From: Dehalococcoidia bacterium
GTDB lineage: Bacteria > Chloroflexota > Dehalococcoidia > Plut-88900
Length of the DNA stretch: 64,000 bases
Reading direction: 5' to 3'
Assembly (NCBI GenBank): GCA_965207225.1
Contig: CBDBLV010000005.1
Span: forward strand, 1,472,001-1,536,000
Shown here one piece after another: positions 11,434-36,044 of the stretch (positions are counted from its first letter, which is position 1; every line of letters begins with the position of its first letter). The position numbers and the translations under genes are program-made. Under the pieces are notes generated by a model. That model worked only from the letters and a program-made list of their open reading frames with translations. It had not been told where the DNA came from and did no database searches.

Positions 11434-11439
11434 GCGCTT

Positions 11440-15462: not shown

Positions 15463-15903
15463 TCAGACCCTCCTTGAGGCCCAGTATCGCTGCATTATAC
15501 AAAATGCCATACAAATATACACAGTCAATCATCCACTATTTCACATAATTGACACGCTCATGATAGAGGCCAACCTGTAGCATGCCAACAGCTGCTTACG
15601 CTTGATGGGTAGCGCAGGCTCGCAACGAGTTGGCGTGATGATTAAACCAGGGCACTTCCCGTCACTTACTGCTCCAGTTCTTCTTTCGAACCAGACATCT
15701 ATGGTGAAACCCACAAAAGATGGGAAGCTTGGCTCGATTCCATTGACCCGGGGGGCAAATCAACCGTTCGGCGATCATTGTGGCTTAGGGATATTGCCAA
15801 ACGAAGTCATCATCGATTGAGGGACGTCCACATTCAGATTGGAGACTTAGGAGATAACTAAGTCGTACGGGGTTACTATCCGCTATATGTCGTTCAGTTA
15901 GGG

Positions 15904-16791: not shown

Positions 16792-16799
16792 CAAAGGAA

Positions 16800-17165
16800 T
16801 CAGCCAACGACTGTCCCGTATTCGGAGTCACGATTGACGACACGCCCCATGTGTCCCGGGTCCTGGCTCAAGTAAGCCCTCATTGCAATCTTATTCTCCT
16901 TAGAGGACATCGGGGTGGGGGTCAGGGCCCGGGACGAGGACGACGGTCTGCTTATCTACACCTTGAACGGCGCGGATGCTGCATTCTTCCGGATAGGGCG
17001 TAACGACGGCCAACTGAAGACTGAGGCTTCCCTGAACTACGAGGCCAGAGGTGCCTACGCGGTGGTGGCCGCTGCCGGTCCTTCTTGGCGCCACTGACAA
17101 GATACTGGTGACCATCAACGTCACCGATGTCGACGACCCCGCGATGATAGCAGTGGTCAAAGGGT
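16800..17165 (+). pseudogene. Cadherin-domain remnant
   Basis: DEDD.L.YTLNGADAAFFRI...GQLKT..SLNYE, and out-of-frame VTINVTDVDDP; no intact ORF. Confidence 0.65.
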
Positions 17166-17426
17166 AAGCCCGGCGGCAGGAGTTTCCGTAGAGACCTATC
17201 AACTGTGTAGGTTGTTGAATTCTGTTCCGTAGCCTAATCAGGCTGACCTAGTCCGAACACAAACCGAATTTTCCCGCCTACACCTTCAGGCTGAACAACA
17301 CCGCGAAAGTCTCGATTTCGCCAGGACTGCCGAGGGATCTAGTGCTCAGGCCACCCCTATTCTGAGGAACGACGGGGCATACCGCCTAGAGAACAGCGTA
17401 GACGATCCCTGTATGAATGTGGGAGT

Positions 17427-18149
17427 TCAGCAGAATGGTAGCCCGACTTTGGAGAAGTCGTTGCGAGGGACATTCTGGAGGGATGCAGGAATGCAGTCCG
17501 TCAACAAGTTGCCGCGGAGCCACAGCTTTCTCAATTTCCTCAGGTTCCCTAGTTCCCCGGGAATATCTCCACTCAATCGGTTCTCTCTCAGCGTTAAGGT
17601 AAGTAGATTTGAGAGGTTACCCAGTTCCGGAGGGATCTCCCCACTTAAACTATTGTATTCAAGCATCAACGATTCCAGATGCGTCAGGCTGCCCAACTCA
17701 GGCGGGATTTCCCCACTGAGCTCGTTGTGTTCCAGATTGACCCAGCCCAAATCCTTGAGTTTGGCAAGCTCAGGCGGAATCTCGCCGGTAAGCCGGTTGT
17801 CTTCCAGGTTTAACCAAGCCAGGTTCTTCAGATCACCCACCTGAGGTGGAATCTCCCCGACCAGCGCAGCGTGGATCCAAATGACCCGTAGTTGGTCCAG
17901 CCTCGCCAGCTCTGCAATGGGTATCTTTACCTCCGAGTGACCACCGTACAAGATAAGTCCGGTGACGCGGCCTCTTCCGTCCACGAATACACCCTCCCAT
18001 TCGCCAAGTGGCTTATCGTTTAGCCGGTCAGTGTTTTCCTCCCAATGCGGGCCATTGGTTGCTATGCAAAAGTCCGTCAACGCCGCCCTATCCCGATCGT
18101 TGTCAGGCATCTCGATCGAATTACCGGATAAACCGATGGCCGGCCTCAC
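17427..18149 (-). CDS. Leucine-rich repeat protein (plant-type LRR; possibly N-terminally truncated)
   Basis: DRAAL..F..ATNGPHW cap and repeated L.L..N.LSGEIPPELG.L. Confidence 0.9.
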   Translation of the reverse strand: MRPAIGLSGNSIEMPDNDRDRAALTDFCIATNGPHWEENTDRLNDKPLGEWEGVFVDGRGRVTGLILYGGHSEVKIPIAELARLDQLRVIWIHAALVGEIPPQVGDLKNLAWLNLEDNRLTGEIPPELAKLKDLGWVNLEHNELSGEIPPELGSLTHLESLMLEYNSLSGEIPPELGNLSNLLTLTLRENRLSGDIPGELGNLRKLRKLWLRGNLLTDCIPASLQNVPRNDFSKVGLPFC

Positions 18150-18214
18150 CGCCTAAGTCGGCACTCACCTAATCATTGTGGGACTACCTCTATATGAGGC
18201 GATTCCCCCTAATG

Positions 18215-20602: not shown

Positions 20603-20671
20603 CTGATCACCTCTATGCGACCGGGGAAGCACCCCTCTCCGGGGCCGCAGGGTATGGCGTCTATCGGGATG

Positions 20672-20741
20672 ATTATGCCAGTACTGGCGGTACATCACAA
20701 TAGGTCATACAAAACACATCGATAAGTCATGGCTATGTCAT
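20672..20741 (-). promoter_or_regulatory. Sigma70-like promoter with 11-bp-phased ATGAC repeats
   Basis: TTGTGA (20700-20695), 17-nt spacer, CATAAT (20677-20672) with an extended -10 TG; ATGAC repeats spaced 11 and 22 bp; paralogous to 31556-31625. Confidence 0.65.
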
Positions 20742-21151
20742 AAATGCGTAGTACGCTACCAAGTGACTTTGCCCAAAAGAGGGGAGGTGCCCGTATGTCT
20801 CTCGACCGAAACGAGCCTAACCGGCGGGAGACGCCTGTCACCATCCCCCCGGTTCTCCCATCCTGAACAGGGGCGGCTCCGGCATGACACGGGCCCTATC
20901 CACCACCACGTCCTTCCCGCCCCCCGGCCGCCGCACCGGCGGTCTTGCCCGTTCATGGTGCTTCAGCCCGGGTAGGGCGGCTGCTCAGCGCTCTGCGGAA
21001 CATACAGCTCACCTCCGACGATCAACGGCTGCCGCTGACCTTGGGCGAACGTGGCAGGGACAGTCGAAAGGCGGGAGTTCACCGCTAGGGAGTCAGCGCC
21101 GGAACGTGTGACGTGACGGGGTCTGTCTGACGAAGGAAGGGGTTATACGCA

Positions 21152-22045
21152 GTGTTCTTCAACAGGCTATTTCGTGAAAAGGCCCTGGCAAGGCGACGGA
21201 GGCAGGAGCCGCTCGACGACCGGTTGCAGGTAACGGCCCCCCACGAGTGGCTGTTGGTGGCCGGGCTGGGCGTGATGTTCCTGGCGCTGCTCGTGTACGG
21301 CGCTGTTGGCAGCGTCGAGCGCAGCCTCTCCTACGATGCGGTGGTGGTCTTTCCCGGCGAGCGCCACACGGTGTCCGCACCTGTCTCCGGCACGGTGATG
21401 GAAGTCCTGGCGGAAGTGGGAGACACCATTGAGCCGGGACAGGTCATCGCCCGGGTTCGCACGGCCGTGGAGCAACAGAGGGAATCCCAGGCGCGTCGGC
21501 TCTCCGAGTTGCTGACGGAGCAGGCGGGCCAAGACGACGAAACGGAGCTGTTCATGCTCCTGCTGGCGCTGGCGGGCGAAGGGGGCGCAGTAGGATCCGA
21601 CGCTGCGGTGAATGTCGTCAGTGTGGCCGGGGGCGAGATCATGACCCTGAGCCTCGCGCCGGGGACGCCCGTCGGCGCCGGTGAGCCGGTGGCGCTGGTA
21701 CGGGCTGCTGCCTCCGGCACCCCCGAAGCCCTTGCGCTGGTGCCGTCCGATGATGCCTGGCGCATCGAGGTTGGGATGGGGGCGCGGGTCAGCGTAACGT
21801 GGGTCAACCGGGAGGCCGGAACCTACCCGGCAGAGGTGGCCGCCGTCTCCGAGCGTGCTGTCACGCCTCCTGCGTGGCTCGACGCGTTGGGCCTGTCTGC
21901 GCAGGCCGGTTCCCATCTGGTGCGCGTGCCGCTAACGGATGACGGCGTGACAGACCTCGTGGCGGACGGCTCCACGGGGTCGCTTCGCGTGGTGGTGGGA
22001 CGGAGTTCTTTCCTGTCCCTCCTTGCGCCGGGAGGCGGCTACTGA
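21152..22045 (+). CDS. NHLP bacteriocin-system HlyD-family secretion protein
   Basis: LFREKAL...EPLDDRLQVT.P.EW, a TM helix and lipoyl-like half-motifs; first gene of the exporter operon. Confidence 0.85.
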   Translation: MFFNRLFREKALARRRRQEPLDDRLQVTAPHEWLLVAGLGVMFLALLVYGAVGSVERSLSYDAVVVFPGERHTVSAPVSGTVMEVLAEVGDTIEPGQVIARVRTAVEQQRESQARRLSELLTEQAGQDDETELFMLLLALAGEGGAVGSDAAVNVVSVAGGEIMTLSLAPGTPVGAGEPVALVRAAASGTPEALALVPSDDAWRIEVGMGARVSVTWVNREAGTYPAEVAAVSERAVTPPAWLDALGLSAQAGSHLVRVPLTDDGVTDLVADGSTGSLRVVVGRSSFLSLLAPGGGY

Positions 22046-24246
22046 TGCGGATGCCGTACCTGATTGGCGGGCGCCGCGGGCCCCGCAGGGCGCGGACGCC
22101 CCTGATGCTACAGATGGAGGACACCGAGTGCGGCGCCGTCTGCCTGGGCATCGTCCTAGCCTACTTCGGGCGTTGGGTCTCCGTGGAGGAGCTGCGCGAG
22201 TCGTGCGCCGTCAACAGGGACGGCTGTGACGCCGCCGACATCACGCGCGCCGCCCGCGGCTACGGGCTGGAGTCACGGGGCTGGCGCCGGGAGCCGGAAC
22301 AACTCGGCGACATGACCATGCCGCTGATCATCTTCTGGGAGTTCAACCACTTCCTGGTGCTGGAGGGGATCCGGGCAGGCAACTACCTGGTGAACGACCC
22401 GGCCAACGGACACCGGACGCTGACCGCCGAGGAGTTCGACCAGGGGTTCACCGGAATCGCGCTGAGCTTCGAGGCCGGACCGGACTTTCGTCCCGGAGGC
22501 TCCCGCCCCGGCGTCGTCCGCAGGCTGTGGCCCTGGCTCTCGGACGTGACCGGGCCGCTGGCATTCGCGCTGTTCTGCGGGCTTCTGCTGTCGCTCCCGG
22601 TCGCCGCCCTGCCGTTCCTGCTGAGCGTCTTCGTCGACCACGTGCTGAGCGGGCGGGAGCCCCAGTGGGGAGCTGCGCTGGCGGGAGGAGTGGCTCTGGC
22701 CGGCGGCCTGGTGTACCTGCTGACCTGGCTGCGGCAGCGCTGCCTCAGACTCCTGGCCGTGCGGCTCTCGGTGGACCACGCAGACCGCTTCATCAGACGG
22801 CTGTTCCGTCTGAAGATGCGGTTCTTCACCAACCGATACGGCGGTGATCTGACCTCCCGGATCCAGCTGATCGACCAGGTCTCCAAGGTGGCGACCGAGC
22901 AGTTCGTCGGGGTGGCCATCGAGCTGGTCACCAGCGCCGTATTCCTGCTGTTCCTGTTCCTGTACGACCCGTTGCTGGCCGGGGCGGTGGCGGCGCTGGG
23001 CGCGGTCAACCTGTATGTCATGCGCCTGCTCACCCGGGGACGGGTGGGCGAGAACCGACGCCTCCAGCGCGAGCAGGGCAAGCTGCAGGGCGTGGGGATG
23101 TACGGCCTGAGCAATATCGACACCCTGCAGTCGACCTCCGGCGAGGTCGGGTTCTTCTCCCACTGGAGCGGCTACCAGGCCAGGGAGCTGCTGGCCCGCC
23201 AGCGCTTCGCGGAGATAGGGCACCTCATGGGAGCACTGCCGGGCGTGTTCGTGATCCTGGGCAACGCCGTCGTGCTGGGGGTGGCGGGCTGGCGCGTGAT
23301 GGAGGGCGACATGTCCCTGGGCATGATGATGGGGTGCTACGTCCTGGCGACGTACTTCCTGATGCCCATCGGACGTCTGGCGCTGTTCGCCGACCTGTTC
23401 CAGGTCCTGGAGGCCAACCTCCAACGGATCGAGGACGTGATGGATGCCCCGGAGGACGCCTACTTCCAGGAGGACGGAGAGCGGCCCTCCGAGAGCAGCG
23501 CCGCTCTCAGCCGGACGGTGCGCCTGAGCGGGCAGCTTGAGTTGCGCAACGTGGAGTTTGGTCACAAGGCGAACCGGGAGCCGATGTTCCAGGACTTCAA
23601 TCTGACCATAGAGCCGGGCCAGAGGGTTGCCCTCGTCGGCCCGTCCGGGTCCGGCAAGTCGACGCTGGCGCTGCTGGCGGCGGGCGTCCACCAGCCCTGG
23701 TCGGGAGCGGTCCTCCTGGACGGCCACCCTCGCTCTGAAGTCCCCCGCAACCTGCTCGGCAGCTCGGTGGCCATGGTAGACCAGCGCATATTCCTATTCG
23801 CCGGCACCGTGCGGGAGAACCTGAGCCTGTGGAACCTTGAGATCCCCGAGCATGACCTGGTTGCCGCGGCCGCCGACGCGGCCATCCACGACGAGATCAT
23901 GGCGCGGGCGCAGGGCTATGATGCGCCCGTGGACGAGGGTGGGCGGAACTTCAGCGGCGGCCAGCGCCAACGCCTAGAGATTGCCCGCGCCCTGGTGGGC
24001 AACCCGTCTTTGCTGATACTGGACGAGGCCACCAGCGCGCTGGACCCGATAACCGAAGTGCGCATCGACGAAGCCCTTCGCCGGCGCGGATGCGCCTGCC
24101 TGATAGTGGCGCACCGCCTCAGCACCATCCGCGACTGCGACCTGATAGTGGTCTTGGACGGCGGGCGGGAAGTTCAGCGGGGCACGCACACCGAGCTGAT
24201 GACGGACCGGGACGGCCTCTACCGCCACCTGATGGAGACGGAATGA
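22045..24246 (+). CDS. NHLP-family ABC exporter with C39 peptidase, permease and ATPase domains
   Basis: LQMEDTECGAVCL (catalytic Cys), WEFNHF (His), GPSGSGKS, FSGGQRQR, LDEATSALD. Confidence 0.95.
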   Translation: MRMPYLIGGRRGPRRARTPLMLQMEDTECGAVCLGIVLAYFGRWVSVEELRESCAVNRDGCDAADITRAARGYGLESRGWRREPEQLGDMTMPLIIFWEFNHFLVLEGIRAGNYLVNDPANGHRTLTAEEFDQGFTGIALSFEAGPDFRPGGSRPGVVRRLWPWLSDVTGPLAFALFCGLLLSLPVAALPFLLSVFVDHVLSGREPQWGAALAGGVALAGGLVYLLTWLRQRCLRLLAVRLSVDHADRFIRRLFRLKMRFFTNRYGGDLTSRIQLIDQVSKVATEQFVGVAIELVTSAVFLLFLFLYDPLLAGAVAALGAVNLYVMRLLTRGRVGENRRLQREQGKLQGVGMYGLSNIDTLQSTSGEVGFFSHWSGYQARELLARQRFAEIGHLMGALPGVFVILGNAVVLGVAGWRVMEGDMSLGMMMGCYVLATYFLMPIGRLALFADLFQVLEANLQRIEDVMDAPEDAYFQEDGERPSESSAALSRTVRLSGQLELRNVEFGHKANREPMFQDFNLTIEPGQRVALVGPSGSGKSTLALLAAGVHQPWSGAVLLDGHPRSEVPRNLLGSSVAMVDQRIFLFAGTVRENLSLWNLEIPEHDLVAAAADAAIHDEIMARAQGYDAPVDEGGRNFSGGQRQRLEIARALVGNPSLLILDEATSALDPITEVRIDEALRRRGCACLIVAHRLSTIRDCDLIVVLDGGREVQRGTHTELMTDRDGLYRHLMETE

Positions 24247-27182
24247 GCAGCGACTTCGAAAAGGCCATCGACGCGACGGCTACGCACCGCATGGCCCAGC
24301 TGGCGCTCGCCCGCGGGGAACCAGCCCCCGGTGGCGGCAACCGCCCCATCCACCTCTCCGACCCCGGTGTCATGTGCTTCGTGGAGGAGGGACCGGTGGA
24401 CGTGTTCGCGGCCCGACGCCGGGCCGACGGGGTGCCGGCCAACTTCAAGCATCTGCTGCGTGCCGGAACCGGGCGGCTGCTGTTTCCCGCCGCGGAGAGC
24501 CTGACCGGGACGGTGCTGGTGATCAAGGGCCTTCCCGGCTCCGCGCTGCGCCTGTTGCCTCTGGACGCGCTCGACGGCGCCGGGTGCGATGGACTGGTCG
24601 TCGAGCAGGCGTGGGACTGGGTCTCCGAGGTCTCCGAGGCGGTGACGCGAGAGTTCACCTATCGCCCGCGCATAGACCGGCTCCTGTCTACGGAGCGGGT
24701 GGAGCAGCCGGTGGAGGCCGGGCAGGCGCTGTCGGCGCGCCGGGGCGTAGTGTGGGTGTCCAGCGGTGACGGGAGCCTTGTCTACCTCGGCACCGAAGAG
24801 GGTGACCCGGACGGCCCCGGCGTGGTCCCGGTCACGTCCGCGAGCTGGGTGACGGCGTCGAAGGATGCCGCGGTGCGCTGCCTCTCCACGACGGAGCTCC
24901 ACGGGGAGGGGCGGCTTATGTCCGCCCTGACGGCCTTCAACGATCTGGCCCTGAGCGCCGACGACCTCAACCGGCGCCTGCTCCTGGCCGACGTCGCCAA
25001 CTTGCAGACGAGCACCGCCGAGTACCGCCAGAGGGGTGAAGAGAACGCACGCCGCCGCCTCTTCGGGGTGCTGGGACCCGGGGTTGGGCGAGAGGGAGAC
25101 GACCTGGCCCTCCCCGGGGCGCTGCAACTGGTCGGCCGCTACGAGGGCATCGCCTTCCGCATGCCCCATGGCCCGGCGCAGCGCCCGGGGTCCGCCGCAG
25201 AAGGGCCGTCGCTGGCCGACGTCCTGCTGGCCTCCGGGGTGCGCATGAGACGGATCGCCCTGCGCATGGAGCAACGCTGGTGGCAGGGGGACAGCGGCGC
25301 GATGCTCGCCATCCGCGCGGGAGACGGCGCGCCCGTGGCCCTCTTGCCGGGGCCCCTGGGATACTACCGGATGGTCGAGCCGGAGTCCGGCCGCCTCCGG
25401 CGGGTCACCGCCCGGCGGGCAGAGTCGCTGGAGCGGGAGGCCTATTTCTTCTACTGTCCGCTGCCCGACGACGAACCGGTCGGGGCCCGGCAGCTGTCCG
25501 GGTTGGCATTCCACCGGGTGGGGGCCGACTTTGTCCGGATGGTCGGGGCCGGGATGCTTGCCGGCCTCGCAATGCTGGTGCCTGCCGTCCTCCTCGGGGC
25601 CTTCGTGGGGCGGGCGCTGCCCTCCGGCTCCCTGCAGATGCTGGGGGCGCTGACCCTGGGAGCCGTTCTCATCGCCCTGCTCCTGGGTGTGCTGCAGATG
25701 TTCCAGGGCACGGCGCTGATGAGGCTGGAGGGCCGGGTGACGGCGCGCGCCGGAGCGGCAATGTGGCACCGGATGCTGGACCTGCCGTCGGGGTTCTTCC
25801 GACGCTTCACCGCCGGCGACCTGGCCACGCGGGCGATGGCGTTCTACGAGCTGCGGGACCAGGTGTCGGGAGTCGTCGTGGGCGCGCTGCTATCGGTCCT
25901 CTTCCTGCTCCCCACCTTCGCCCTGCTCTTCCTGTATAACGCCGCCCTGGGCTGGCTGTGCCTTGGTCTGGGACTGGTCTGCCTGGGCGTCACCCTCGCG
26001 CTGGGCCTGATGCAGACGCCATACCATCGCCGTCGGCTGGCCGTCACCCGGCGGCTGGCGGGGACGCTGCTCCAGCTGATAGGCGGGGTGGGCAAGCTGC
26101 GGACCGCGGGCGCCGAGGGAATGGCCTTCATCATGTGGGCCCGGGGATACCGGGAGCAGAAGCAGACGGAGATGAGGCTGGGGGCGTACCAGGAGCACCT
26201 GATGGCCTTCACCGCGGCCGTGCCGCTGCTCGCCTCCGCAGCGCTGTTCGCCCTGGCATTGACGATTGGCGGGGACGACCTGGCAGTGGGCGGCTTTCTG
26301 GTGGTGTACGCCGCCTTCATGGTGTTCAATGGCGCGGTCGTCCAGCTCGGCGGGGCCTTCTCCGCCCTCGCCGCCATACTCCCTGCCGTGCAGCAGGTGC
26401 AGCCCATCCTGGCCCAGCGCCCCCGCAACGTCTCCTCGGACCTTCCAGCCCCCGAGCTGAAGGGCGAGGTGCTGCTGGACCGCGTGAGCTTCCGCTACTC
26501 TGACGACGGGCCGCTGATCCTCAACGACGTGACCATCCACGCCCTGCCGGGAGAGTTCATCGCCCTGGTCGGGGAGTCGGGCGCGGGAAAGAGCACGATA
26601 TTCCGTCTGGCCCTGGGACTTGAGAGGCCGCAGCTCGGCGCCGTCTACTACGACGGCCACGACTTGAACAGGCTCAACTGGAGCTCGGTGCGCAGCAGGA
26701 TCGGCACTGTCCCTCAGGACGCCCACCTGCGCCCACAGACGATTCTGGACAACATCATCGGCATCGACGGGGAGCTGAACGAGGACGACGCATGGCGGGC
26801 CGCCAGGCTGGCACGGGTGGAAGCCGACATCGCGGCAATGCCCATGCGCATGTACACCGTCAGCAGCGAGAGCGCCGCGGCCTTCTCCGGCGGCCAGGTG
26901 CAGCGCTTCATGCTGGCCGCCGCCCTGGCTCGGGATCCCAAGGTGCTGCTGCTGGACGAGGCGACCAACTGGCTCGACAACCGGACCCAGGCCGACATCA
27001 TGGAGCAGATCGAGCAGCTCTCCGTGACCCGCATCATCAGCGCCCATCGCCTGTCCACCATTCGGCGGGCCGACCGCATCTACGTGCTCCAGGGCGGGCG
27101 GGTTGTCCAGGAGGGGACCTTCGAAGGGCTGATGGAACAGGAAGGCGTCTTCCGGGACCTGGTCAGGCGGCAACTGACGTGA
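24243..27182 (+). CDS. NHLP-family ABC exporter permease/ATPase (second subunit, no active C39)
   Basis: ATGA overlap with the previous gene; WWQGDSGAMLA, GESGAGKS, FSGGQ, LLDEAT. Confidence 0.9.
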   Translation: MSSDFEKAIDATATHRMAQLALARGEPAPGGGNRPIHLSDPGVMCFVEEGPVDVFAARRRADGVPANFKHLLRAGTGRLLFPAAESLTGTVLVIKGLPGSALRLLPLDALDGAGCDGLVVEQAWDWVSEVSEAVTREFTYRPRIDRLLSTERVEQPVEAGQALSARRGVVWVSSGDGSLVYLGTEEGDPDGPGVVPVTSASWVTASKDAAVRCLSTTELHGEGRLMSALTAFNDLALSADDLNRRLLLADVANLQTSTAEYRQRGEENARRRLFGVLGPGVGREGDDLALPGALQLVGRYEGIAFRMPHGPAQRPGSAAEGPSLADVLLASGVRMRRIALRMEQRWWQGDSGAMLAIRAGDGAPVALLPGPLGYYRMVEPESGRLRRVTARRAESLEREAYFFYCPLPDDEPVGARQLSGLAFHRVGADFVRMVGAGMLAGLAMLVPAVLLGAFVGRALPSGSLQMLGALTLGAVLIALLLGVLQMFQGTALMRLEGRVTARAGAAMWHRMLDLPSGFFRRFTAGDLATRAMAFYELRDQVSGVVVGALLSVLFLLPTFALLFLYNAALGWLCLGLGLVCLGVTLALGLMQTPYHRRRLAVTRRLAGTLLQLIGGVGKLRTAGAEGMAFIMWARGYREQKQTEMRLGAYQEHLMAFTAAVPLLASAALFALALTIGGDDLAVGGFLVVYAAFMVFNGAVVQLGGAFSALAAILPAVQQVQPILAQRPRNVSSDLPAPELKGEVLLDRVSFRYSDDGPLILNDVTIHALPGEFIALVGESGAGKSTIFRLALGLERPQLGAVYYDGHDLNRLNWSSVRSRIGTVPQDAHLRPQTILDNIIGIDGELNEDDAWRAARLARVEADIAAMPMRMYTVSSESAAAFSGGQVQRFMLAAALARDPKVLLLDEATNWLDNRTQADIMEQIEQLSVTRIISAHRLSTIRRADRIYVLQGGRVVQEGTFEGLMEQEGVFRDLVRRQLT

Positions 27183-27247
27183 GTCGCCCGTCCCGCCAGA
27201 TAAACGATGGAGGCATGGAGGAGGCAGACGAGAGTGAGGAGGACTGC

Positions 27248-28339
27248 ATGAAGGCAAGCGAGACAGGGCCGGGAAGCGGGCTCTCCAGCGAGGCGCCCCA
27301 CGGCTCCTTTGGCGAGTTCCTGGCGGAGCTGCACAGCCTGTTTCCTTCCGCGCTGCTCAGCGGACCCGGCTGGGAGCGTCTGCTGGTGCTGGCGCATCGC
27401 CTGCCCATCCACGTGTTCGACCAACGTTTCGGTTTCGAGTTCGATCTGTGCGTCCCCGACCCGGCGGCGGACTTCTGCGTGGTGCCGCCTCCCGGCTCCC
27501 GTCTTGCCGAGTTCTACGCCCAGCAGGGCCAGCTTGCCCCACGGGGGTCCGCAGAGGCCGCGCTGGGGGCGTTTCTCGCCGAACAGTCAAGCGACCCGCA
27601 GGCTTTTCTGGCAGGGCGAAACGGCGGCGTGATACTCGAGTACGATCTGGCCGGGATTCCGTCGGAGCAACCGGCCTCGCCCGGGATCTTCATAGTGCCT
27701 CGGGATGCGCAGGAAGAGTCCTGCATTGAGGGGTTATTCGGCGACCTGGAGCCTGTCATAGCCGCCCTGTGGGCGGTCGCCGGGTGGACGCCCGACGCCG
27801 CGATCCTGCGGCAGGTACGCCGGGTCTACCAGACCATGCCCCCGATGGGCTTGGTCACCCAGGCAGGCGTCCTGCCCAGCCGCGCGCAACGGGCGGTCCG
27901 TCTCATCATAGGCACGGGTTCCGGCACAGATGCCGTTGAGCTCTTGTCACGGCTCGGGTGGTCCGGTCCCCCTGCGGACGTGCTCGCCGTGTACGAGAGC
28001 CTGGAGGAGATGACGAGCCCGGGCGTCAGCCTGAGCGTTGACGTTACCGCGGAGGGGGTATCTCCCCGCCTTGGATTGGAGTTCCACCGGCCCGCCCAGT
28101 GGTACGAGCTGGACCGCTCCGGGTGGAATCGGCTGGTCGATCGGTTGGAAGAGAGGGGATGGTGCCTTCCGGGGAAGGCCCGCGGTCTGAAGGCATGGCC
28201 GCGAGTGGAGCAGGTCTTCGATCAAGCCGGAGTGTTCATGGTCCGGCAGAGCATCAATCATGTAAAGGTGGTTGTGAACCGCGGAAGAACTGAGGCCAAA
28301 GCCTACGCCGGCACGGCTATCTCGAAGGCGATCCCGTAG
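27248..28339 (+). CDS. Uncharacterised 363-aa protein, candidate RiPP maturase (possibly ABBA/aromatic prenyltransferase-like)
   Basis: GAGGAGG RBS; last gene of the exporter operon; motifs FGFEFDL..AADF, ILEYDL, PRLGLEF, INHVKV...EAKAY; the fold guess is inference. Confidence 0.6.
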   Translation: MKASETGPGSGLSSEAPHGSFGEFLAELHSLFPSALLSGPGWERLLVLAHRLPIHVFDQRFGFEFDLCVPDPAADFCVVPPPGSRLAEFYAQQGQLAPRGSAEAALGAFLAEQSSDPQAFLAGRNGGVILEYDLAGIPSEQPASPGIFIVPRDAQEESCIEGLFGDLEPVIAALWAVAGWTPDAAILRQVRRVYQTMPPMGLVTQAGVLPSRAQRAVRLIIGTGSGTDAVELLSRLGWSGPPADVLAVYESLEEMTSPGVSLSVDVTAEGVSPRLGLEFHRPAQWYELDRSGWNRLVDRLEERGWCLPGKARGLKAWPRVEQVFDQAGVFMVRQSINHVKVVVNRGRTEAKAYAGTAISKAIP

Positions 28340-28407
28340 GCCTGCGCCGCGCCGTTAACGGCCAGCCGCCGATCGACCCTGTCGTCGCCGATATGCCTGC
28401 CGCGTTA

Positions 28408-28677
28408 CTAGCTTGGGTTCCCCCATTCCTTAACGTAGGGGAACCCGCCGGCTATCTTCTCCAGCTCCGTCTCCGTGAGCTCCGACGATGGCGGCAGCAC
28501 CAGGTGGGCGGTGGTGGCGCTGTCCTCGTGCACAACCACGTCGAAACCGTCCGGTATGACCGTGCCTATCTCGGAGGCGATGGCGCCCTTCGGGTCGGCG
28601 ATAAGGCGGGTGCGGAACTCGCTGTCCACCTCCGCTTTGTCGAGTATCCGGTCCTTCATTTCGGTTGCTGTCGTCAT
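28408..28677 (-). CDS. NHLP-leader RiPP precursor 1, core FPYVKEWGNPS
   Basis: NHLP leader (D.EFR.RLIADPK.AI...VHED...HLVLP...ELTE.ELE.IAGG). Confidence 0.9.
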   Translation of the reverse strand: MTTATEMKDRILDKAEVDSEFRTRLIADPKGAIASEIGTVIPDGFDVVVHEDSATTAHLVLPPSSELTETELEKIAGGFPYVKEWGNPS

Positions 28678-28724
28678 TGCTCTATTCCTTTCTCTCTTCT
28701 TCGTTTCAGATAGTGGCTCCCCAT

Positions 28725-28784
28725 TCAGGGAAAGGGGGGCAGAACCAGGTGAGCGGTGGTGGCGCAGTCCTCGTGCACCACGAC
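28725..28784 (-). pseudogene. Relic of an NHLP leader
   Basis: Reads VVVHEDCATTAHLVLPPFP* within the spacer. Confidence 0.75.
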
Positions 28785-28799
28785 ATGTCATGTCGTTCT

Positions 28800-29063
28800 T
28801 TACCATGGGCTCTGGCCTCTGTAGGCGCGCCCTCCTGCGACCGTCTCCAGTTCGGTCTCCGTGAGTTCCGGCGATGGCGGCAGCACTAGGTGGGCGGTGG
28901 CAGCGCTGTCCTCGTGCACCACCACGTCGAACCCGTCCGGTATGGCCGTGCCTATCTCGGAGGCAATGGCCCCATTCGGGTCGGCGATTAGGCGGGCGCG
29001 GAACTCGTCGTCCTCCGACGCTTTGCCCAGAATCTGCTTCTTCAGTTCGGCTGCCGTCGTCAT
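28800..29063 (-). CDS. NHLP precursor 2, core RAYRGQSPW
   Basis: Same leader, ending VAGG. Confidence 0.9.
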   Translation of the reverse strand: MTTAAELKKQILGKASEDDEFRARLIADPNGAIASEIGTAIPDGFDVVVHEDSAATAHLVLPPSPELTETELETVAGGRAYRGQSPW

Positions 29064-29159
29064 TGCGCTACTCCTTTCTCTCCTGCTCGTTTCGGGTAGC
29101 GGCTCCCTGCATTCGAAGGTGGGGATGCCACGCCAAGTGATCCTCTTGGCTTCCCCAAC

Positions 29160-29210
29160 CTAGGCGCCACCTTTGCCCCATGGCGTCACTCCCCAAGCAG
29201 CTCCGGCGAC
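29160..29210 (-). pseudogene. Orphan core cassette VAGA-AWGVTPWGKGGA*
   Basis: Out of frame, 4 nt after the stop of precursor 3; closely matches the core and downstream DNA of precursor 5. Confidence 0.8.
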
Positions 29211-29214
29211 AGGT

Positions 29215-29493
29215 TCACCCGGTCGGTGGAGTCCACTCCGGTGTCTTCGCTCCCCAAGTAGCTCCGGCGACCATCTCCAACTCCGCATCCGTGAGCTCCG
29301 GCGAGGGGGGCAGCACCAGGTGGGCGGTGGTGGCACCTTCCTCGTGCACCACCACTTCGAACCCGTCCGGTAGGGCCGCGCCTATCTCGGAGGCGATGGC
29401 GCCCTTCGGGTCGGCGATGAGACGGGTCCGGAACTCGCCGTCCTCCGACGCCTTGCCCAGAATCTGCTTCTTCAGTTCGGCTGCTGTCGTCAT
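29215..29493 (-). CDS. NHLP precursor 3, core TWGAKTPEWTPPTG
   Basis: Same leader, ending VAGA. Confidence 0.9.
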   Translation of the reverse strand: MTTAAELKKQILGKASEDGEFRTRLIADPKGAIASEIGAALPDGFEVVVHEEGATTAHLVLPPSPELTDAELEMVAGATWGAKTPEWTPPTG

Positions 29494-29563
29494 TGCTCTA
29501 CTCCAATCTCTCTTGTTCGTTTCGGTTGGCGGTTCCCTGCATTCGATAGTGGGTATGGATACC

Positions 29564-29682
29564 TCACCACACGATTGTCAACATGCCGCCCGTTGCCTTT
29601 CCAACTCGGCCTAGGTCAGCGCCGGCATTAGCGCCGGGACGCCGGCTTCAGGGCTTCCCAATCGGCTTCCGCCCGCGACCAA
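29564..29682 (-). pseudogene. Two degraded leader-end/core relics
   Basis: LVAGG...(29682-29628) and PALT*AELE-(frameshift)-ATGG-MLTIVW* (29625-29564). Confidence 0.55.
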
Positions 29683-29698
29683 CCTGCGCCCTCCTTGG

Positions 29699-29965
29699 TC
29701 AAAAGTCATCGGACGCGTCCCAACCAGCGTTTCCGCCGGCGACCATCTCCATCTCGGCCTCGGTGAGCTCCGGCGAGGCCGGAAGCACCAGGTGGGCGGT
29801 GGTGGCGTCATCCTCGTGCACCACCACGTCGAACCCGTCCGGTATGGCCGTTCCGATCTCGGAGGAGATGGCGGCCTTCGGGTCAGCGATGAGGCGGGCG
29901 CGGAACTCGCTGTCCACCTCCGCTCTGCCCAGAATCTGCGTCTTCAGTTCGGCTACCGTCGTCAT
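29699..29965 (-). CDS. NHLP precursor 4, core NAGWDASDDF
   Basis: Same leader, ending VAGG; AAGGAG RBS. Confidence 0.9.
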   Translation of the reverse strand: MTTVAELKTQILGRAEVDSEFRARLIADPKAAISSEIGTAIPDGFDVVVHEDDATTAHLVLPASPELTEAEMEMVAGGNAGWDASDDF

Positions 29966-30061
29966 TGCGCTGCTCCTTGCTCTCCTGTTCGTTTCGGATA
30001 GCGGCTCCCCGCATTCATAGGTGGGCATGTCACGGCAAGTGATCCTCTTGGCATCCCCAAC

Positions 30062-30334
30062 CTAGGCGCCGCCTTGGCCCCATGGTGTCGCTCCCCAACC
30101 AGCTCCGGCGACAGCTTCCAGTTCCGCATCCGTGAGCTCCTGCGAGGGAGGCAGCACCAGATGGGCGGTAGTGGCGCCGTCCTCGTGCACCTCTACGTCG
30201 AACCTATCGGGTATGGCCGTGCCGATCTCGGAGGCTATGGCACCCTTCGGGTCCCTGATAAGGCGGGCGCTGAACTCGGCGTCCTCAGCCGCCCTGCTCA
30301 GGACCTGTGTCTTCAGTTCGGTTGCTGTGGTCAT
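30062..30334 (-). CDS. NHLP precursor 5, core GWGATPWGQGGA
   Basis: Same leader, ending VAGA. Confidence 0.9.
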   Translation of the reverse strand: MTTATELKTQVLSRAAEDAEFSARLIRDPKGAIASEIGTAIPDRFDVEVHEDGATTAHLVLPPSQELTDAELEAVAGAGWGATPWGQGGA

Positions 30335-30430
30335 AGCCTTACTTCTATTCTCATCTTCGTTCCCCATGGTGGCTCCCCGTGTTGGAAGGGGACCTGCTGC
30401 CGGACCACCTCCGGACTCAGCCTTGCTGTC

Positions 30431-30688
30431 CTAACCCCACAGGCCGGTATGGTGGCCTCCGGCGACGGTCTCCAGTTCGGCCTCCGTGAGCTCCGGAGAG
30501 GGGGACAGCACCAGGTGGGCCGTGGTGGCAGTGTCCTCGTGCACCACGACGTCGAACCCGTCCGGTATGGTAGCTCCGATTTCGGAGGCAATGGCGGCCT
30601 TCGGGTCGGCAATGAGAAGCGCGCGGAATACGCCGTCCTCCGACGCCCTGCCGAGTATCCGGTCCTTCATTTCGGTTGCCGTGGTCAC
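30431..30688 (-). CDS. NHLP precursor 6, core HHTGLWG
   Basis: GTG start after AAGGAG; leader ends VAGG. Confidence 0.9.
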   Translation of the reverse strand: MTTATEMKDRILGRASEDGVFRALLIADPKAAIASEIGATIPDGFDVVVHEDTATTAHLVLSPSPELTEAELETVAGGHHTGLWG

Positions 30689-30757
30689 GGCTCTCCTTCT
30701 TTCACTATGTGCTCCAAGAGACTTCACCCTGGGTTGCTGTATCCGAAAAGGTATCCG

Positions 30758-31018
30758 TTACCAGGCCATATAGCCCCCGATGCCGCCGGCAACTGACTCC
30801 AGCTCGGCCTCCGTCAGCTCCGGCGAGAGGGGCAGCACCAGGTGGGCGGTGGTAGCGCTGTCCTCGTGCACCACCACGTCGAACCCGTCCGGTATGGCTG
30901 ATCCGATCTCGGAGGCGATTGCAGCCTTCGGTTCGGCGATGAGGCGGGCGCGGAACTCGCTGTCCTCGGCCGCCTTGCTCAGGACCTGTCTCTTCAACTC
31001 GGTTGCAGTGGTCATCAT
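30758..31018 (-). CDS. NHLP precursor 7, core IGGYMAW
   Basis: Same leader, ending VAGG. Confidence 0.9.
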   Translation of the reverse strand: MMTTATELKRQVLSKAAEDSEFRARLIAEPKAAIASEIGSAIPDGFDVVVHEDSATTAHLVLPLSPELTEAELESVAGGIGGYMAW

Positions 31019-31152
31019 TCACCTCGTTTTTGACTATTTGGGGGTCTCAACTGGCCCCGCCCGGCGGCCAACCCGAGGTCAGCCGGCGCCAAATCCGGTC
31101 AGAAAGACAGCGCCAAGGGGGACGTCCGGTGGCGCCGTCCTTTTGCGGTACG

Positions 31153-31422
31153 CTAGCCGTTCGGGTTTACCTTCTGATCCCAAAGATTCCCGCCCGCGAC
31201 CATCTCCAGCTCCGCCTCGGTGAGCTCCGGCGTGGGTGGCAGCACCAGGTGGGCGGTGGTGGCGCCGTCCTCGTGGACGACCACATCGAACCCGTCCGGT
31301 ATGGCCGTTCCGATCTCGGAGGCTATGGCCCCCTTCGGGTCTGCGATGAGGCGGGCGCGGAACTCGCCGTCCTCGGCTGCCTTGCTCAGAATCTGGGTCT
31401 TCATTTCGGTTGCCGTGGTCAT
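31153..31422 (-). CDS. NHLP precursor 8, core NLWDQKVNPNG
   Basis: Same leader, ending VAGG; AAGGAG RBS; first gene of the array. Confidence 0.9.
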   Translation of the reverse strand: MTTATEMKTQILSKAAEDGEFRARLIADPKGAIASEIGTAIPDGFDVVVHEDGATTAHLVLPPTPELTEAELEMVAGGNLWDQKVNPNG

Positions 31423-31555
31423 GGTATTGCTCCTTTTCTCTCATTCGCTCCAGATCGTGGTTCTCTCAATCGAGGAGGGACACCCTTTCAACGTGGGATC
31501 GGCTTCCCTTACCTCATCCCATAGCTGTAAACCCCTGTAATCCTACAATATATGT

Positions 31556-31625
31556 ATGATATTAAGGTGACTTGTGGGCTAAATGTTCGTGACCTATTGT
31601 GATATTTGGCCAATGTTGGCATAAT
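31556..31625 (+). promoter_or_regulatory. Sigma70-like promoter with phased RTGAY repeats (inverted paralog of 20672-20741)
   Basis: TTGTGA 31597-31602, 17-nt spacer, CATAAT 31620-31625; repeats at 31556, 31567 and 31589. Confidence 0.65.
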
Positions 31626-31693
31626 CGTCGCGACTAATGCGGGTTCTTGAGGTCTTGTAGGACGAGCCTCCGCGGCCGGATCGAGGTGAAGAG

Positions 31694-32401
31694 TTGGACC
31701 AACCGATATCGAAGAACGAGGTCACCGCACCTGAAGAGCTTTACGGCAAGCGCTACGTTCGGCCGTACGCGGCCCTCTATATCAATCACCCGTTGTGGGA
31801 GCCTAAACTGCAATGCAACGTAGCACTGCTAAGCAGGCTGTTGAAGTCGTTGGGCAACTGGCTGGACACTTGCTGCGGGCAAGGGTGGCACCTGGCGCAG
31901 TTTCCCAACCACCGGCGGATGGGCATTGACCTCAGCGCGGCCCAACTCGAAAAGGCGAGGCTGCAGAACCCCGGAGTCCCCTTCATCCAGGCAGACATCA
32001 CCGATTACGAGCTTCCCGAGGGGCAGCACTTCGACCTGGTGAGCAACTTCTGGAGCGCCTATTCCTACCTGAACGACGAGGATGCCATCCGCGCACTGGT
32101 GGAGAAGCTGGTCCGCTGGACGGCGCCGGGCGGAGCCCTCTACCTGGAACTGACCGTCCCGGAGCTGCTGGAGGATTTCAACCACAGCGAGTTCGCGGCG
32201 GAGACGGGGGCCAGGGTCTCCCTGCGGTCACCCGACGGGGTGTGCTGGGACTACCACGACGCTGGCGGGGTCCACCGGATGATGAGCCCACCCCTGGAGT
32301 TTTTCACCGGCATCATCGCGCCGCACTTCGCGGGGACCAGCCACCCGGTCATAGTCCGATCTATACGCCAGTTCGTTGCCTGGGGCAAGCGGCCCGACTG
32401 A
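31694..32401 (+). CDS. Class I SAM-dependent methyltransferase
   Basis: WLDTCCGQG motif I, GIDLS, ADI, FDLV and APGGAL. Confidence 0.9.
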   Translation: MDQPISKNEVTAPEELYGKRYVRPYAALYINHPLWEPKLQCNVALLSRLLKSLGNWLDTCCGQGWHLAQFPNHRRMGIDLSAAQLEKARLQNPGVPFIQADITDYELPEGQHFDLVSNFWSAYSYLNDEDAIRALVEKLVRWTAPGGALYLELTVPELLEDFNHSEFAAETGARVSLRSPDGVCWDYHDAGGVHRMMSPPLEFFTGIIAPHFAGTSHPVIVRSIRQFVAWGKRPD

Positions 32402-33069
32402 TGAGGCGCCCGCCTCTGCTTCCACCACCAACCGTCACCGCCACCTTACCTTGTATTCGGACCTTCGTTTTTGCCGCCGTGGTCAGGGGCGACTCCTCCC
32501 CTCAGAACCTCGCAGGATACTCGTTGGTCTGGTGACCGGCTGTGCGAGCATCTGCTGACTCGTTGCCGTCCCTCCCGCCCGACACTCCGGCAGGCTGGCG
32601 TGCGTACCTATGACTAGGCCCTCATCGCGGACTTGCGCTACGAGAAACTCCTAGATCACACGCAGTTCCCCAACGGTCCGGTCGAGTGAGACTCCCTTCG
32701 GGGCCTGCCAACTTCGGGGATTGAAATACTCGCTCGGAAGATCCATGAACGGTCCCCGGAATCCCGAGGCGCCGCTTTCGGGTCTCGCGGGGAAGAAGCT
32801 GAACACCCCATTGATGGGGCGTCGGGTGTAGCTCCCCGATACAGCCGACCGCTGCCGGTCAGGGTCGCTCTCATAGCAACTGCGAAGGCGTCAGGCGTCC
32901 ACAGGTTCAGCGCTGAGAGTCCGCTAGCAGCATCGTGTGGAACCGGGTCTTTGACCACGAGAAGGGTATCGAGCATCCATCTCCGCCGACCTTCGACGCC
33001 GACTCGTCATGCTAGAGGCTAACCTACCTCACGAGAGCCAACCGAGAGGAGAGAGCGAAGACTCCAACC

Positions 33070-35683
33070 TCACTCCTCGTCCGGCTTGCCCCCCTCCCCC
33101 GACGCCATCCGGTAGCCGACGCGGGGCTCTGTGAAGATGAACCTGGCACTGGCGGCGGTCTCGCCCAGCTTGCGGCGGATTCGCTTTGCCACCTCCCGCA
33201 CCAGTCTGGACTCGCCCACCCACTCCGGCCCCCACACCCGCTGGAGCAGCACGCCGTGGGTCAGCACCCTGGGGGCGTGGACCGAGAGTTCGTAGAGCAC
33301 CGCGTACTCCGTGGCCGTCGCCTCCACCGGCTCCCCGTCCACCGTCACCCTGCGCTGGGCGTAGTAGGAGCTCAGCCCCGCAGCGAAGTAGGGTCCAGGC
33401 GGCTCGCCCTGGAAGGGCTCCAGCCGCCGCCTGAGCGCTACCCTGATCCTGGCCGCCAGTTCCGTGGGCGAGAAGGGCTTGACCACGTAGTCGGCCGCCC
33501 CCATGTCGAAGGCCCTGGCGATGGTCTCGTTCTCGCCGTACACCGACAGGAAGACGACGATCGCGTCCGTCCTCCTGCGGATGTCGTTCATCAGCTCGAT
33601 GCCGTCGCTGTCCGGCAGCATGAGGTCTAGGCGGGGCTTCTCCTCCTCCACTTGCGGCCTACGCCGATCCCCTCGGGCGCGGCCCATGATCTGTCCCCCA
33701 GGCGGCCAGGGAGCCAAGGGAGACCGTGGCGGCTATTCCCTATATTCTTCCTCTTGGGGTCTAGTTGTCATGATCCACCCTAAAGTCGCATTCTAGGGGA
33801 GTCTTTTCGTGTGGTCCTCGCGTTTTCGGGTCCTATTCCTGGTCCTGCCTCGCGTTACGTAGCGCCTTGCGCTTACGCCATGCGATCGTCCTGTGACTCG
33901 GGGTGCAATAGTTGGCCTTGCGTACGCGAAGGACCTCGAAAGTGACCCCGCATAAAGCGCACTGGACCAGGACCGGAGCGGGGTGGACCCTCCCGAACAT
34001 ATGCACGCCCTTGGCCGCCGGGCGGTACCTCGGTGATGCCGGGACGGGGGCGATGGCCGGGGCCTCCGCTGCCGGCAGGGTGAAGGTGAACCGCGCCTCC
34101 AGGCCCGGCCCGTCGCTCTCGGCCGCGATGCGGCCCCCGTGGGCCTCCACGATTCCCTTGCAGATGGCGAGCCCCAGGCCCGACCCGTCCACGCCCGCGC
34201 CGCCCTCGGCAACGCCGGCACACGAGAACTTCCTGAAGAGCTCGGGTAGCATCTCCGCCGGGATGTTCCGGCCTCGGTCGGTCACCGAGACCGCCACTTG
34301 CACGCCCTCCCTCGCGGCGGTCACCGCTATGGGCGACCCCTGGGGAGAGTAGGCGTCGGCGTTGGACAGCAGGTTGCCCAGCACCTGCACGATGCGCCGC
34401 CGGTCGGCCATAACCAGGGGCAGGTCGTCGGCTAGCCGCACCTCCAGGGCAGTCGCGGCGTCTCCCGTGAGGAACCGGATTGCGGCCTCCTCCACCAGCG
34501 TCCGCACCTCGGCGGGCTCCGGGTCCACCGCCAGCGCCCCCGTCTCGATGCGGGCCACGTCCAGCAGGTCGCCGATGAGGCGGCGCATGTGGTCCGACTG
34601 GTCGCGGATGATGCGGTGGAACTGCGCCGTCTCGGTGGGGTCGAGGTCACCCGCCGCCTCCAGCAGCGTGGTGACCGACCCCTTGATGGAGGTCAGGGGA
34701 GAGTGGAGCTCGTGGCTCACCATGGCCAGGAACTCGGCCCGAAGCCGCTCTTGCTCCTCCACCCCCGCCATGTCCTGCATGGTGACCACCACCGACTCCA
34801 CCTCGCCGTCGTCCGAGCGGATGGGGGTGGCGTTGAGCAGCACGGTCACGCCCCGCCCGTCGGGGACCGCCATGACGATCTCCTCGGCCCGCATCGTCTC
34901 GGAGTCGCCCAGGAAGCGTGCCAGGGGGAACTCCCGCAGGGATACCTCGCTCCCGTCGGCCCGCCACACGGTCAGCAGAGCCAGCAGGTCCTCAGGTGAT
35001 TGGTCCGGATTCCGCAGCCTGTCGACGATCCTGCGGGCCTCCGGGTTGAAGGACGGTACGGTCCCCGTCTTCATGTCGAAGACGACGACGCCCACCGGCG
35101 AGGTGTCGATGAGCGTCTGAAGGGCCGACCTTGCCCGCTGCTCCTCCCGGTGCCTGCGGGCGTTGGCGATGACCAGGGCCGCCTGGGAGGCGAACGTCAC
35201 CAGCCTCTCCTCATCCTCCTTCGTGAACTCCCGGCCCGGCTCGCCGTGCCCAACGTAGAGATGGCCCGAGCGAACGCCCTGGTGGAGTAGCGGGGCCGCC
35301 ATGAACGCTGTCAGCGTCACCGGCGAGCTGAACTCCCCGAAGCCGATGGAGCTTGTGAACTCTTCAAGATGGCCTATCCGCAGGGGGCTGGTGAGGGCGT
35401 TCAGGTACTCGAAGAACATCTCCCCCTCGGGGGCCTGCCAGAGTTGCTCCACGTCGGCGGGGTCGAAGCCCAGGACCAGGTGGTCGTCCACCGCGCCCGA
35501 ATCGTCCAGCGTGATGATGGCGGCGTAGGGCGCGTCGGTCAGAGAGCGAGCAGACTCCATCAAGGCTTGGAGCGCCGCGTCCACGTCCAGGCTCTCGTTG
35601 ATGCGCAGGCTGGCCGCGCTCAGGCGGGAGAGGCGCTCCCGCAGGGCCTCGAAGTCGCGGTCCCGCTGATCCGAATCGGTCAA
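33070..35683 (-). pseudogene. Hybrid GAF-PAS-HK-REC-wHTH regulator, copy 3, interrupted
   Basis: Kinase part 33833-35683 and a REC/wHTH remnant 33070-~33652; the receiver N-terminus (VLAVDDD) is replaced by about 350 bp of unrelated DNA. Confidence 0.8.
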
Positions 35684-36044
35684 TGGCTTTCTCCCAGCCG
35701 GCCCGCAGTACCGAGGGATCTCACGGGCCGGGGCATGACGGTCTCTCTCTGGATAATACACCAAATCATACAAAGACACCACTAAAAACCCCATTAGTGA
35801 TATGCTTGGTCTGATAGTGTTTTGCTGGGCTTATATGCCGCGGAGCCGGTCGGCCTCTGTCGCCCCGGCCCGGCCGGACCCCTGAACGATGGAACGACCG
35901 ATGGAGCGGTAGATTCTTTAGAGGAGGCACGACAGCCATGTTCGGTACAGGAAGCGACAGGAGCACGATGCGCCGCCTGCTGAGGGCGGCCATGGCCGTT
36001 ATCCCCTCGGAAACGGACGTTCTGGCCCCTTCGGACGGACTGGC

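Follow-up and report, generated by a model that had tools for sequence, protein, structure and literature searches.

Prenylation of tryptophan (Trp) alters the interaction of a peptide with membranes and its biological activity, and is sought for the late-stage lipidation of peptide drugs. Few enzymes are known to prenylate Trp in peptides; the papers cited below name ComQ, PalQ, the KgpF-type cyanobactin enzymes and MppC. Here we compare these systems with a locus in a 64,000-nucleotide stretch of the genome of a Dehalococcoidia bacterium (contig CBDBLV010000005.1; the whole stretch is called the window below). The locus has an exporter operon, eight minus-strand genes for precursors of the NHLP (nitrile hydratase leader peptide) type that span 28408-31422, and a plus-strand gene at 27248-28339, whose product we propose to be a peptide Trp prenyltransferase (PT).

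Two described systems, PalQ/PalX of Paenibacillus alvei and ComQ/ComX of Bacillus, share with the locus an NHLP-type precursor and a short core with a Trp that is, or in the window would be, prenylated on the indole. The conserved Trp at the C-terminus of PalX is the residue that PalQ prenylates, with turnover raised by the NHLP domain (PMC10853753). The PalQ/PalX cluster is small and includes a histidine kinase (PMC10853753); the window has hybrid kinases on both sides of the locus. The enzymes themselves differ. PalQ and ComQ are all-helical members of the isoprenoid-synthase superfamily, which has Asp-rich motifs; the window protein is predicted to be an alpha/beta PT-barrel and has no polyprenyl synthase match in Pfam. 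Unlike the PalQ and ComQ systems, the window also has eight hypervariable precursors, a Trp that varies in position and a dedicated NHLM-type exporter.

A closer likeness in fold is offered by MppC, an alpha-beta-beta-alpha PT that adds a geranyl group to Trp C5 of a lanthipeptide precursor with a Nif11 leader, and that requires this leader (PMC12715784). Here too an ABBA barrel would act on the Trp of a long-leader precursor; however, MppC prefers a lanthionine-cyclised core, and the window has no cyclase. The cyanobactin F-family (PagF, KgpF) acts without a leader. Neither it nor MppC has sequence similarity to the window protein as judged by library models. DMATS-type enzymes use free Trp or small-molecule substrates and, unlike the window family, are not linked to precursors of peptides that ribosomes make and that are modified after translation (RiPPs). 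The srp proteusin clusters (SrpE/SrpC/SrpI), found in many uncultivated phyla, have NHLP precursors in which the indole of a core-terminal Trp is modified; their cores are LCCCW, and they encode a YcaO cyclodehydratase and a flavin-dependent brominase (10.1101/2023.06.09.544420, PMC10858898). An srp-type identity of the locus was rejected, as the window has neither a YcaO nor a halogenase gene and its cores are not LCCCW. Passages on peptide prenylation systems in two papers from 2026 name only cyanobactin PTs and NctPC, with DMATS-type enzymes as tools, in one (PMC13290415), and only cyanobactins, ComX and steromaze in the other (PMC13647313). In the open full-text literature, which covers few subscription-journal papers, we found no description of an ABBA-type PT linked to NHLP precursors. 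The proposed chemistry and the fold are already known; what is new is the large sequence family and the fact that it is paired with arrays of NHLP precursors whose cores are linear and hypervariable.

The predicted fold of the 27248-28339 product is a PT-barrel, also called the ABBA fold, which is an antiparallel barrel of alpha-alpha-beta-beta units with helices around it. The AlphaFold2 model was built on an alignment of 112 relatives, down to about 25% identity, and has a mean predicted local distance difference test score of 92.8 and a predicted template modelling (TM) score of 0.91; all five models agree. It contains five helix-helix-strand-strand repeats, the last with one extra strand. 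The 11 strands assigned by DSSP form the pairs 61-66/74-78, 126-132/146-151, 202-208/217-222, 260-267/270-280 and 319-325/328-344, with the extra strand at 347-360. The initial annotation had suggested an ABBA/DMATS-type PT from the spacing of short strands and a terminal K-x-Y strand, and all the segments that it quoted lie in beta-strands of the model (FGFEFDL, 61-67; ILEYDL, 129-134; VSLSVDV, 260-266; LGLEF, 275-279; HVKVV, 338-342; AKAY, 350-353).

Structural neighbours bear the suggestion out. A Foldseek search of the PDB gave 86 matches at E<=1e-3, and among the matches listed (ranks 1-50, with gaps) all are ABBA aromatic PTs, mostly indole or Trp PTs. The top match is DMATS1 (8daz; E 1.7e-6, TM 0.55/0.56). 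Also listed are FgaPT2 (3i4x), FunA (9iia), PriB, 5-DMATS, 6-DMATS (6zrx), IptA, EpzP, CymD, AnaPT, CloQ, AtaPT, MpnD and the brevianamide F PT (3o2k). The best of these are DMATS-type enzymes (DMATS1, FgaPT2, PriB, IptA, CymD, 5- and 6-DMATS; E 1.7e-6 to 1e-4); CloQ and EpzP match at E of about 2e-5. The listed matches, which are of the DMATS and CloQ/EpzP types and include no cyanobactin PT, have a probability of 1.00, 10-16% identity, TM scores of 0.43-0.58 and root-mean-square deviations (rmsd) of 6-9 A. An independent language-model search of the ESM Atlas placed unnamed clusters nearest (0.96), followed among named clusters by Trp_DMAT (0.90) and then PTase_Orf2 and DUF5838 (0.88-0.89).

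At the level of sequence the protein is as uncharacterised as it had first been described. The best Pfam match of the window protein is sub-threshold (DddA-like, E 0.29), and NCBIfam returned no family. A phmmer search of PDB sequences gave one match (E 0.11), and a profile made from the alignment of relatives gave four (E 0.2-2.1); none is a PT. The 112 relatives match no relevant Pfam family, the best hit being an AAA lid domain in two members (E 0.0084). The DMATS family PF11991 (Trp_DMAT) has no match in the window protein at E<=10 or in the 112 relatives at E<=1, and the NphB/CloQ family PF11468 (PTase_Orf2) has no sequence match in either. The cyanobactin F-family (LynF/TruF/PatF/PagF-type) is likewise without a match in Pfam or in NCBIfam, which we take to include a LynF/TruF/PatF PT model. 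The family is nonetheless large. When 1.84 billion representatives were searched exhaustively, 1195 clusters matched at E<=1e-3, of which 347 reached E<=1e-10 and 99 E<=1e-30; a word-indexed search that scored 8000 candidates gave 361 relatives at E<=1e-3. The 120 relatives listed from the latter carry no Pfam domain and are named solely "hypothetical protein", and eight longer relatives of 390-498 amino acids (aa) also have no Pfam domain. No fused form was found among proteins of 637-2000 aa, which is weak evidence, and tblastn found no match to the enzyme in a plasmid collection.

Polar residues on the barrel strands are highly conserved. Y353 is invariant across the 112 aligned relatives, and more than 90% conservation is also found at L36, P53, G62, E64, L67, D75, L130, E131, D133, P145, G146, G207, P210, R212, R218, L233, W238, G240, G276, W293, K310, L314, H338, K340 and K351. 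The basic and Tyr residues on strands are R218 (92%), R274 (69%), H338 (97%), K340 (99%), K351 (97%) and Y353 (100%), spaced i/i+2; the acidic ones are E64 (98%), D75 (99%), E131 (91%), D133 (99%), D265 (83%) and E278 (73%). Two strand glycines, G62 and G276 (95%), are highly conserved as well. Since the conserved polar residues alternate with hydrophobic positions on the strands, as would be expected of lumen-facing residues when helices pack on the outer face of a barrel, they probably face the barrel lumen. In ABBA enzymes, basic and Tyr side chains hold the diphosphate, and in those of DMATS type K-x-Y strand motifs do so. By analogy, R218, R274, H338, K340, K351 and Y353 would hold the prenyl diphosphate. 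A terminal K-x-Y strand had been noted at the outset and is among the best conserved features of the family; of the expectation that basic residues suited to diphosphate binding would be found, the near-invariant basic and Tyr strand residues at i/i+2 stand as observed, and the part that places them in the lumen is inferred from the alternation. DMATS-type enzymes also have a Glu, and by likeness to it E64 is our guess for the catalytic base. The acids D75, E131, D133, D265 and E278 would fit Mg2+ dependence; their number suggests either metal dependence or a varied mechanism.

The substrates would be the products of the precursor array. All eight window precursors match Pfam NHase_alpha, five of them over its 27.2-bit cut-off, and both precursors tested pass the cut-off of TIGR03793, the NHLP leader model (72 and 71.4 bits). 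Their leaders are about 70-80% identical to each other and end in GG or GA. The cores, in contrast, have 7-14 residues and are mutually unrelated apart from a Trp in each; the invariant core Trp of the initial annotation is present in all eight. A hidden Markov model (HMM) made from these precursors matches only the eight array genes in the window. Where the other leaders start, precursor 6 lacks an ATG; its leader begins at GTG 30688, and the open reading frame (ORF) extends to GTG 30727. Its core, HHTGLWG, is unlike most cores in being identical in six loci of other genomes (L001, L004, L006, L007, L012 and L051 of the set described next).

The pairing of enzyme and precursor extends well beyond the window. 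One genome per species was scanned with two enzyme motifs alone, which gave 56 loci (numbered with the prefix L), all from metagenome-assembled genomes. Going by the titles, the sources include Dehalococcoidia, Chloroflexota, SAR202, Nitrospirales, Vicinamibacterales, other Acidobacteria, Acidimicrobiia, Gemmatimonadetes, Spirochaetia, Gamma- and Alphaproteobacteria, Rhodobacter, Binatia and Latescibacterota, and relatives of the enzyme occur in metagenome-assembled genomes from more than ten phyla. The window-derived precursor HMM finds at least one NHLP precursor within 10 kb in all 56 loci, and up to 15 ORFs per locus. The enzyme family is strictly linked to NHLP precursors, as a co-occurrence check on the first proposal had called for. 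Cores were taken from HMM matches that reach leader model position 76 or beyond and carry a cleavage-site pattern, with shorter or partial matches left out. Trp is present in 183 of the 192 cores so defined (146 of 154 unique cores), against about 38 expected at a background of 1.5%, and is C-terminal in 65. It makes up 251 of 3121 core residues (8.0%) versus 14 of 14407 leader residues (0.1%), an enrichment of about 80-fold. Three further precursor matches that lack the cleavage pattern all have a Trp near the C-terminus. A co-fold prediction with enzyme and precursor alignments scored 0.16 against a mark of 0.32, which speaks neither for nor against binding.

Enzymes and cores also vary together. 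Fifty-five of the loci and the window hold 80 ORFs of the family, 71 of them full length. In a midpoint-rooted FastTree tree of the full-length set, enzymes cluster according to the class of the adjacent core. The conserved core classes xWCSPV (Vicinamibacterales and relatives), VDVNWDTVNIS, MIIVW, xFWDD and DWxxxGW each keep the Trp and pair with one clade; the tree also has groups with [IVWF]xWxxVGW cores and with cores that have a C-terminal Trp. Shared ancestry alone can yield such a pattern. In the window clade (L001-L006, L012, L014) the precursors form hypervariable multi-gene arrays that lie downstream and converge on the enzyme gene; in most other clades the precursor gene is on the strand of the enzyme gene and immediately upstream of it, in general no more than 200 bp away. 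Several gammaproteobacterial loci have three to five enzyme paralogs, each adjoining its own precursor. In L042, L029, L048, L053, L039, L031 and L027, three to five enzyme copies occur within 20 kb, with precursors of different core classes. Partial or split copies of the family are seen in L007 (9977-10951), L011 (10146-11003), L044 (13004-14319), L051 (10001-10288, where the enzyme is present only as a fragment) and L054 (9929-10804). They match part of the profile or span two ORFs, and precursor arrays still adjoin them; they may be decaying copies or assembly errors.

We favour, with a probability of roughly two in three, the reading that the product of 27248-28339 is a soluble, leader-linked peptide Trp PT of a new sequence family. 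Fold, conserved residues and genomic linkage support the initial suggestion of a Trp PT. That it is catalytic, that Trp is the acceptor and that a prenyl group is transferred are what we infer, and the order of events would probably be as follows. The enzyme would bind a prenyl diphosphate (dimethylallyl, geranyl or farnesyl diphosphate) inside the barrel and alkylate the indole of the single conserved Trp in a core of about 7-15 residues, probably with the leader still attached. The adjoining S-adenosylmethionine (SAM)-dependent methyltransferase may then add a methyl group. The C39-peptidase transporter ABC1 would cut after GG or GA, and ABC1, ABC2 and HlyD would export a small prenyl-Trp lipopeptide. 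Eight precursors with hypervariable cores would give a small library of prenyl-Trp peptides. If this holds, more than 1000 clusters at 50% identity represent a large untapped set of enzymes, which would tolerate hypervariable linear cores of 7-15 residues, probably guided by the NHLP leader. A widespread "hypothetical protein" would also gain a function, and the many NHLP clusters that at present seem to have no maturase would gain a product class.

Several observations weigh against this reading. The modelled fold resembles its structural matches only moderately, as their TM scores and rmsd indicate, and searches of Pfam, NCBIfam and the PDB give no sequence-level link to any characterised PT. 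The orientation of the conserved residues comes from alternation, not coordinates, and acids are unusually many on the strands, so that DMATS-type enzymes could use a different chemistry from this protein. Nine of the 192 cores have no Trp: six have Tyr (four of VDVYPV type and two acidic), another has YRF at its end, GGSL seems to be truncated, and the last is a Trp-loss variant of a Trp-containing core. Finally, no gene for a prenyl-diphosphate synthase was found among the recurrent neighbour clusters of 57 sources, that is, the 56 loci and the window.

Some of these points bear on the alternative that survives best, in which a PT-barrel enzyme acts on the same precursors but at another acceptor (Tyr, a new N-terminus or another nucleophile) or by other chemistry (a non-prenyl electrophile or cyclisation). 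The acid-rich set of near-invariant strand residues (E64, D75, E131, D133, D265, E278) would suit different chemistry, and a few Tyr-only cores stand beside Trp cores in L040, L041, L045 and L049; in cyanobactins, ABBA enzymes are known to act on Tyr, His, Arg, Ser and Thr as prenyl acceptors (PMC12715784). On the other hand, Trp is the sole residue common to the hypervariable cores, with the frequency and enrichment given above, and the best structural matches are mostly indole PTs. To our knowledge, no PT-barrel has non-prenyl chemistry, which also counts against a change of chemistry. We regard this alternative as distinctly unlikely.

A non-catalytic PT-barrel, which would bind the precursor or product as a chaperone, export adaptor or immunity protein, appears quite improbable. 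Its gene ends the exporter operon, and sequence comparison detects no catalytic motif of any known family. Yet about a dozen polar strand residues are 90-100% conserved among relatives that are only about 25-30% identical, as is typical of active sites. Outside the window clade, moreover, the gene in most clades adjoins a precursor gene rather than the exporter operon, and in the window it is the sole tailoring candidate besides the methyltransferase, which is found in only 12 of the 56 loci. That the protein is a small-molecule aromatic PT unrelated to peptides and beside the array by chance is very improbable indeed, for although free Trp or small aromatics are the substrates of its best structural matches, the co-occurrence contradicts it: linkage to precursors is kept in every locus across many phyla, with a precursor within about 200 bp in most clades, paralogous enzymes each have their own precursor (up to five in L042), and enzyme clades track core motifs.

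The reading as a leader-linked Trp PT can be carried further. In a wider view, a new and very large ABBA peptide PT family would have been recruited independently of the cyanobactin F-family, and would turn NHLP arrays into libraries of ComX/PalX-like short prenyl-Trp lipopeptides, in at least ten phyla of uncultivated bacteria; the peptides would serve as diffusible signals read by flanking hybrid histidine kinase/response regulators, and horizontal transfer of a GC-rich island would account for the spread of the cluster. We consider this view, taken as a whole, rather unlikely.

Table 1. Genes of the putative Trp prenyltransferase locus, with positions in the window.
Feature	Position	Strand	Evidence or remarks
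HlyD-type membrane-fusion protein, NHLP export, short form	21152..22045	+	Pfam HlyD_3; TIGR03794 NHLM_micro_HlyD
ABC1, NHLP-family export ABC transporter, N-terminal C39 peptidase	22045..24246	+	Pfam Peptidase_C39, ABC_membrane, ABC_tran; TIGR03796
ABC2, second NHLP export ABC permease/ATPase	~24240..27182	+	Pfam; TIGR03797
Putative peptide Trp prenyltransferase, PT-barrel (ABBA fold), 363 aa	27248..28339	+	Translation, AlphaFold2, Foldseek, ESM Atlas neighbours
NHLP precursor 1	28408..28677	-	Core FPYVKEWGNPS after GG
NHLP precursor 2	28800..29063	-	Core RAYRGQSPW (C-terminal Trp); TIGR03793 72 bits, cut-off 50.9
NHLP precursor 3	29215..29493	-	Core TWGAKTPEWTPPTG after GA
NHLP precursor 4	29699..29965	-	Core NAGWDASDDF
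NHLP precursor 5	30062..30334	-	Core GWGATPWGQGGA after GA
NHLP precursor 6	30431..30688	-	Core HHTGLWG; probable GTG start 30688
NHLP precursor 7	30758..31018	-	Core IGGYMAW (C-terminal Trp)
NHLP precursor 8	31153..31422	-	Core NLWDQKVNPNG
Class I SAM-dependent methyltransferase	31694..32401	+	Pfam Methyltransf_25/11/23; NCBIfam matches weak

The genes of the locus are listed in Table 1. The enzyme gene closes a set of four genes with the same direction, after HlyD, ABC1 and ABC2, and its stop is separated by 68 nucleotides (nt) from that of the nearest minus-strand precursor, an order and a convergence that agree with the initial annotation. The 27248-28339 ORF gives an uninterrupted translation of 363 aa. 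Its frame is open from 26792, the part upstream of 27182 overlapping the ABC2 gene, and offers three in-frame starts. GTG 27179 overlaps the ABC2 stop as GTGA and is implied by an identical database entry of 386 aa (P0002), ATG 27215 lies between, and ATG 27248 has GAGGAGG about 6 nt upstream, as read directly from the sequence. The choice of start has no effect on the fold, because residues 1-11 of the 363-aa form are predicted to be disordered by AlphaFold2. Promoter- and terminator-like sites are no more frequent in 27000-32600 than in shuffled sequence, and the scan found no terminator between the convergent enzyme gene and precursor array.

Array and transporters belong to an NHLP (proteusin-type) RiPP system with an NHLM exporter, two of the three exporter proteins scoring below the cut-offs of their models. 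ABC1 reaches 891.6 bits against TIGR03796 (cut-off 853.3), and is presumed to cleave the leader after GG or GA and to export the product. ABC2 falls just below the cut-off of TIGR03797 (697.8 versus 709.4 bits), and HlyD matches TIGR03794 with 81 bits (E 8.3e-23), under the cut-off of 156. The ABC2 start is uncertain, the ORF being open from 24090. An N-terminal extension of ABC2 of about 290 aa (24240-25100) lies outside the TIGR03797 match and has no Pfam family match; one possible role for it is recognition of the precursor.

Partner genes were counted by ORF clustering of the same 57 sources; two large clusters were dropped, as they are antisense ORFs over the enzyme gene itself. ABC transporters recur in 38 sources, HlyD in 27, an oxidase with a FAD_binding_4 domain and a cytokinin-dehydrogenase-like C-terminal domain in 18, a JmjC-domain protein in 15, a SAM methyltransferase in 13 (the window and 12 loci; those listed are L001-L010, L012 and L052) and hybrid histidine kinases in 10. 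The methyltransferase of the window, orthologs of which adjoin the array in those 12 loci, is possibly a second tailoring enzyme. The FAD oxidase is often directly downstream of the enzyme (loci include L018, L021, L023, L026, L005 and 13 others), and with the JmjC protein it is a further tailoring candidate in other clades (the L024-L043 group). Cytokinin dehydrogenases act on a prenylated amine, and by this analogy the oxidase may process the prenyl group.

The block 18000-38000, which holds the RiPP cluster and flanking kinases, has 61-71% G+C versus about 53-59% at 1-18000 and 40000-46000, consistent with a compositional island and horizontal acquisition of the cluster. Three paralogous minus-strand genes for hybrid sensors, with the domain order GAF-PAS-HisKA-HATPase-REC-OmpR, flank the cluster on both sides. 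The copy at 18215-20698 is intact (827 aa), that at 13086-15462 is split into two overlapping ORFs, and that at 33070-35794 is split and lacks a part matching residues 596-636 of the intact copy, to which the split copies are 56-69% identical. These kinases could be sensors for the exported peptides. Also beside the cluster are genes for eukaryote-like protein types (24-887, 3687-5135, 15904-16791 and 17427-18149): two tetratricopeptide repeat proteins, a serpin (E 2.3e-109) and a leucine-rich-repeat protein. Farther downstream, the minus-strand stretch 47378-63798 looks like a defence island. It encodes a Prok-E2 family D protein and a SMODS nucleotidyltransferase, which resemble CBASS (cyclic oligonucleotide-based antiphage signalling system), a Dcm-type C5 DNA methylase fused to Vsr, a HATPase_c_3 protein, a pentapeptide-FRG protein, an Eco57I/MmeI-type methylase of 1112 aa and a helicase.

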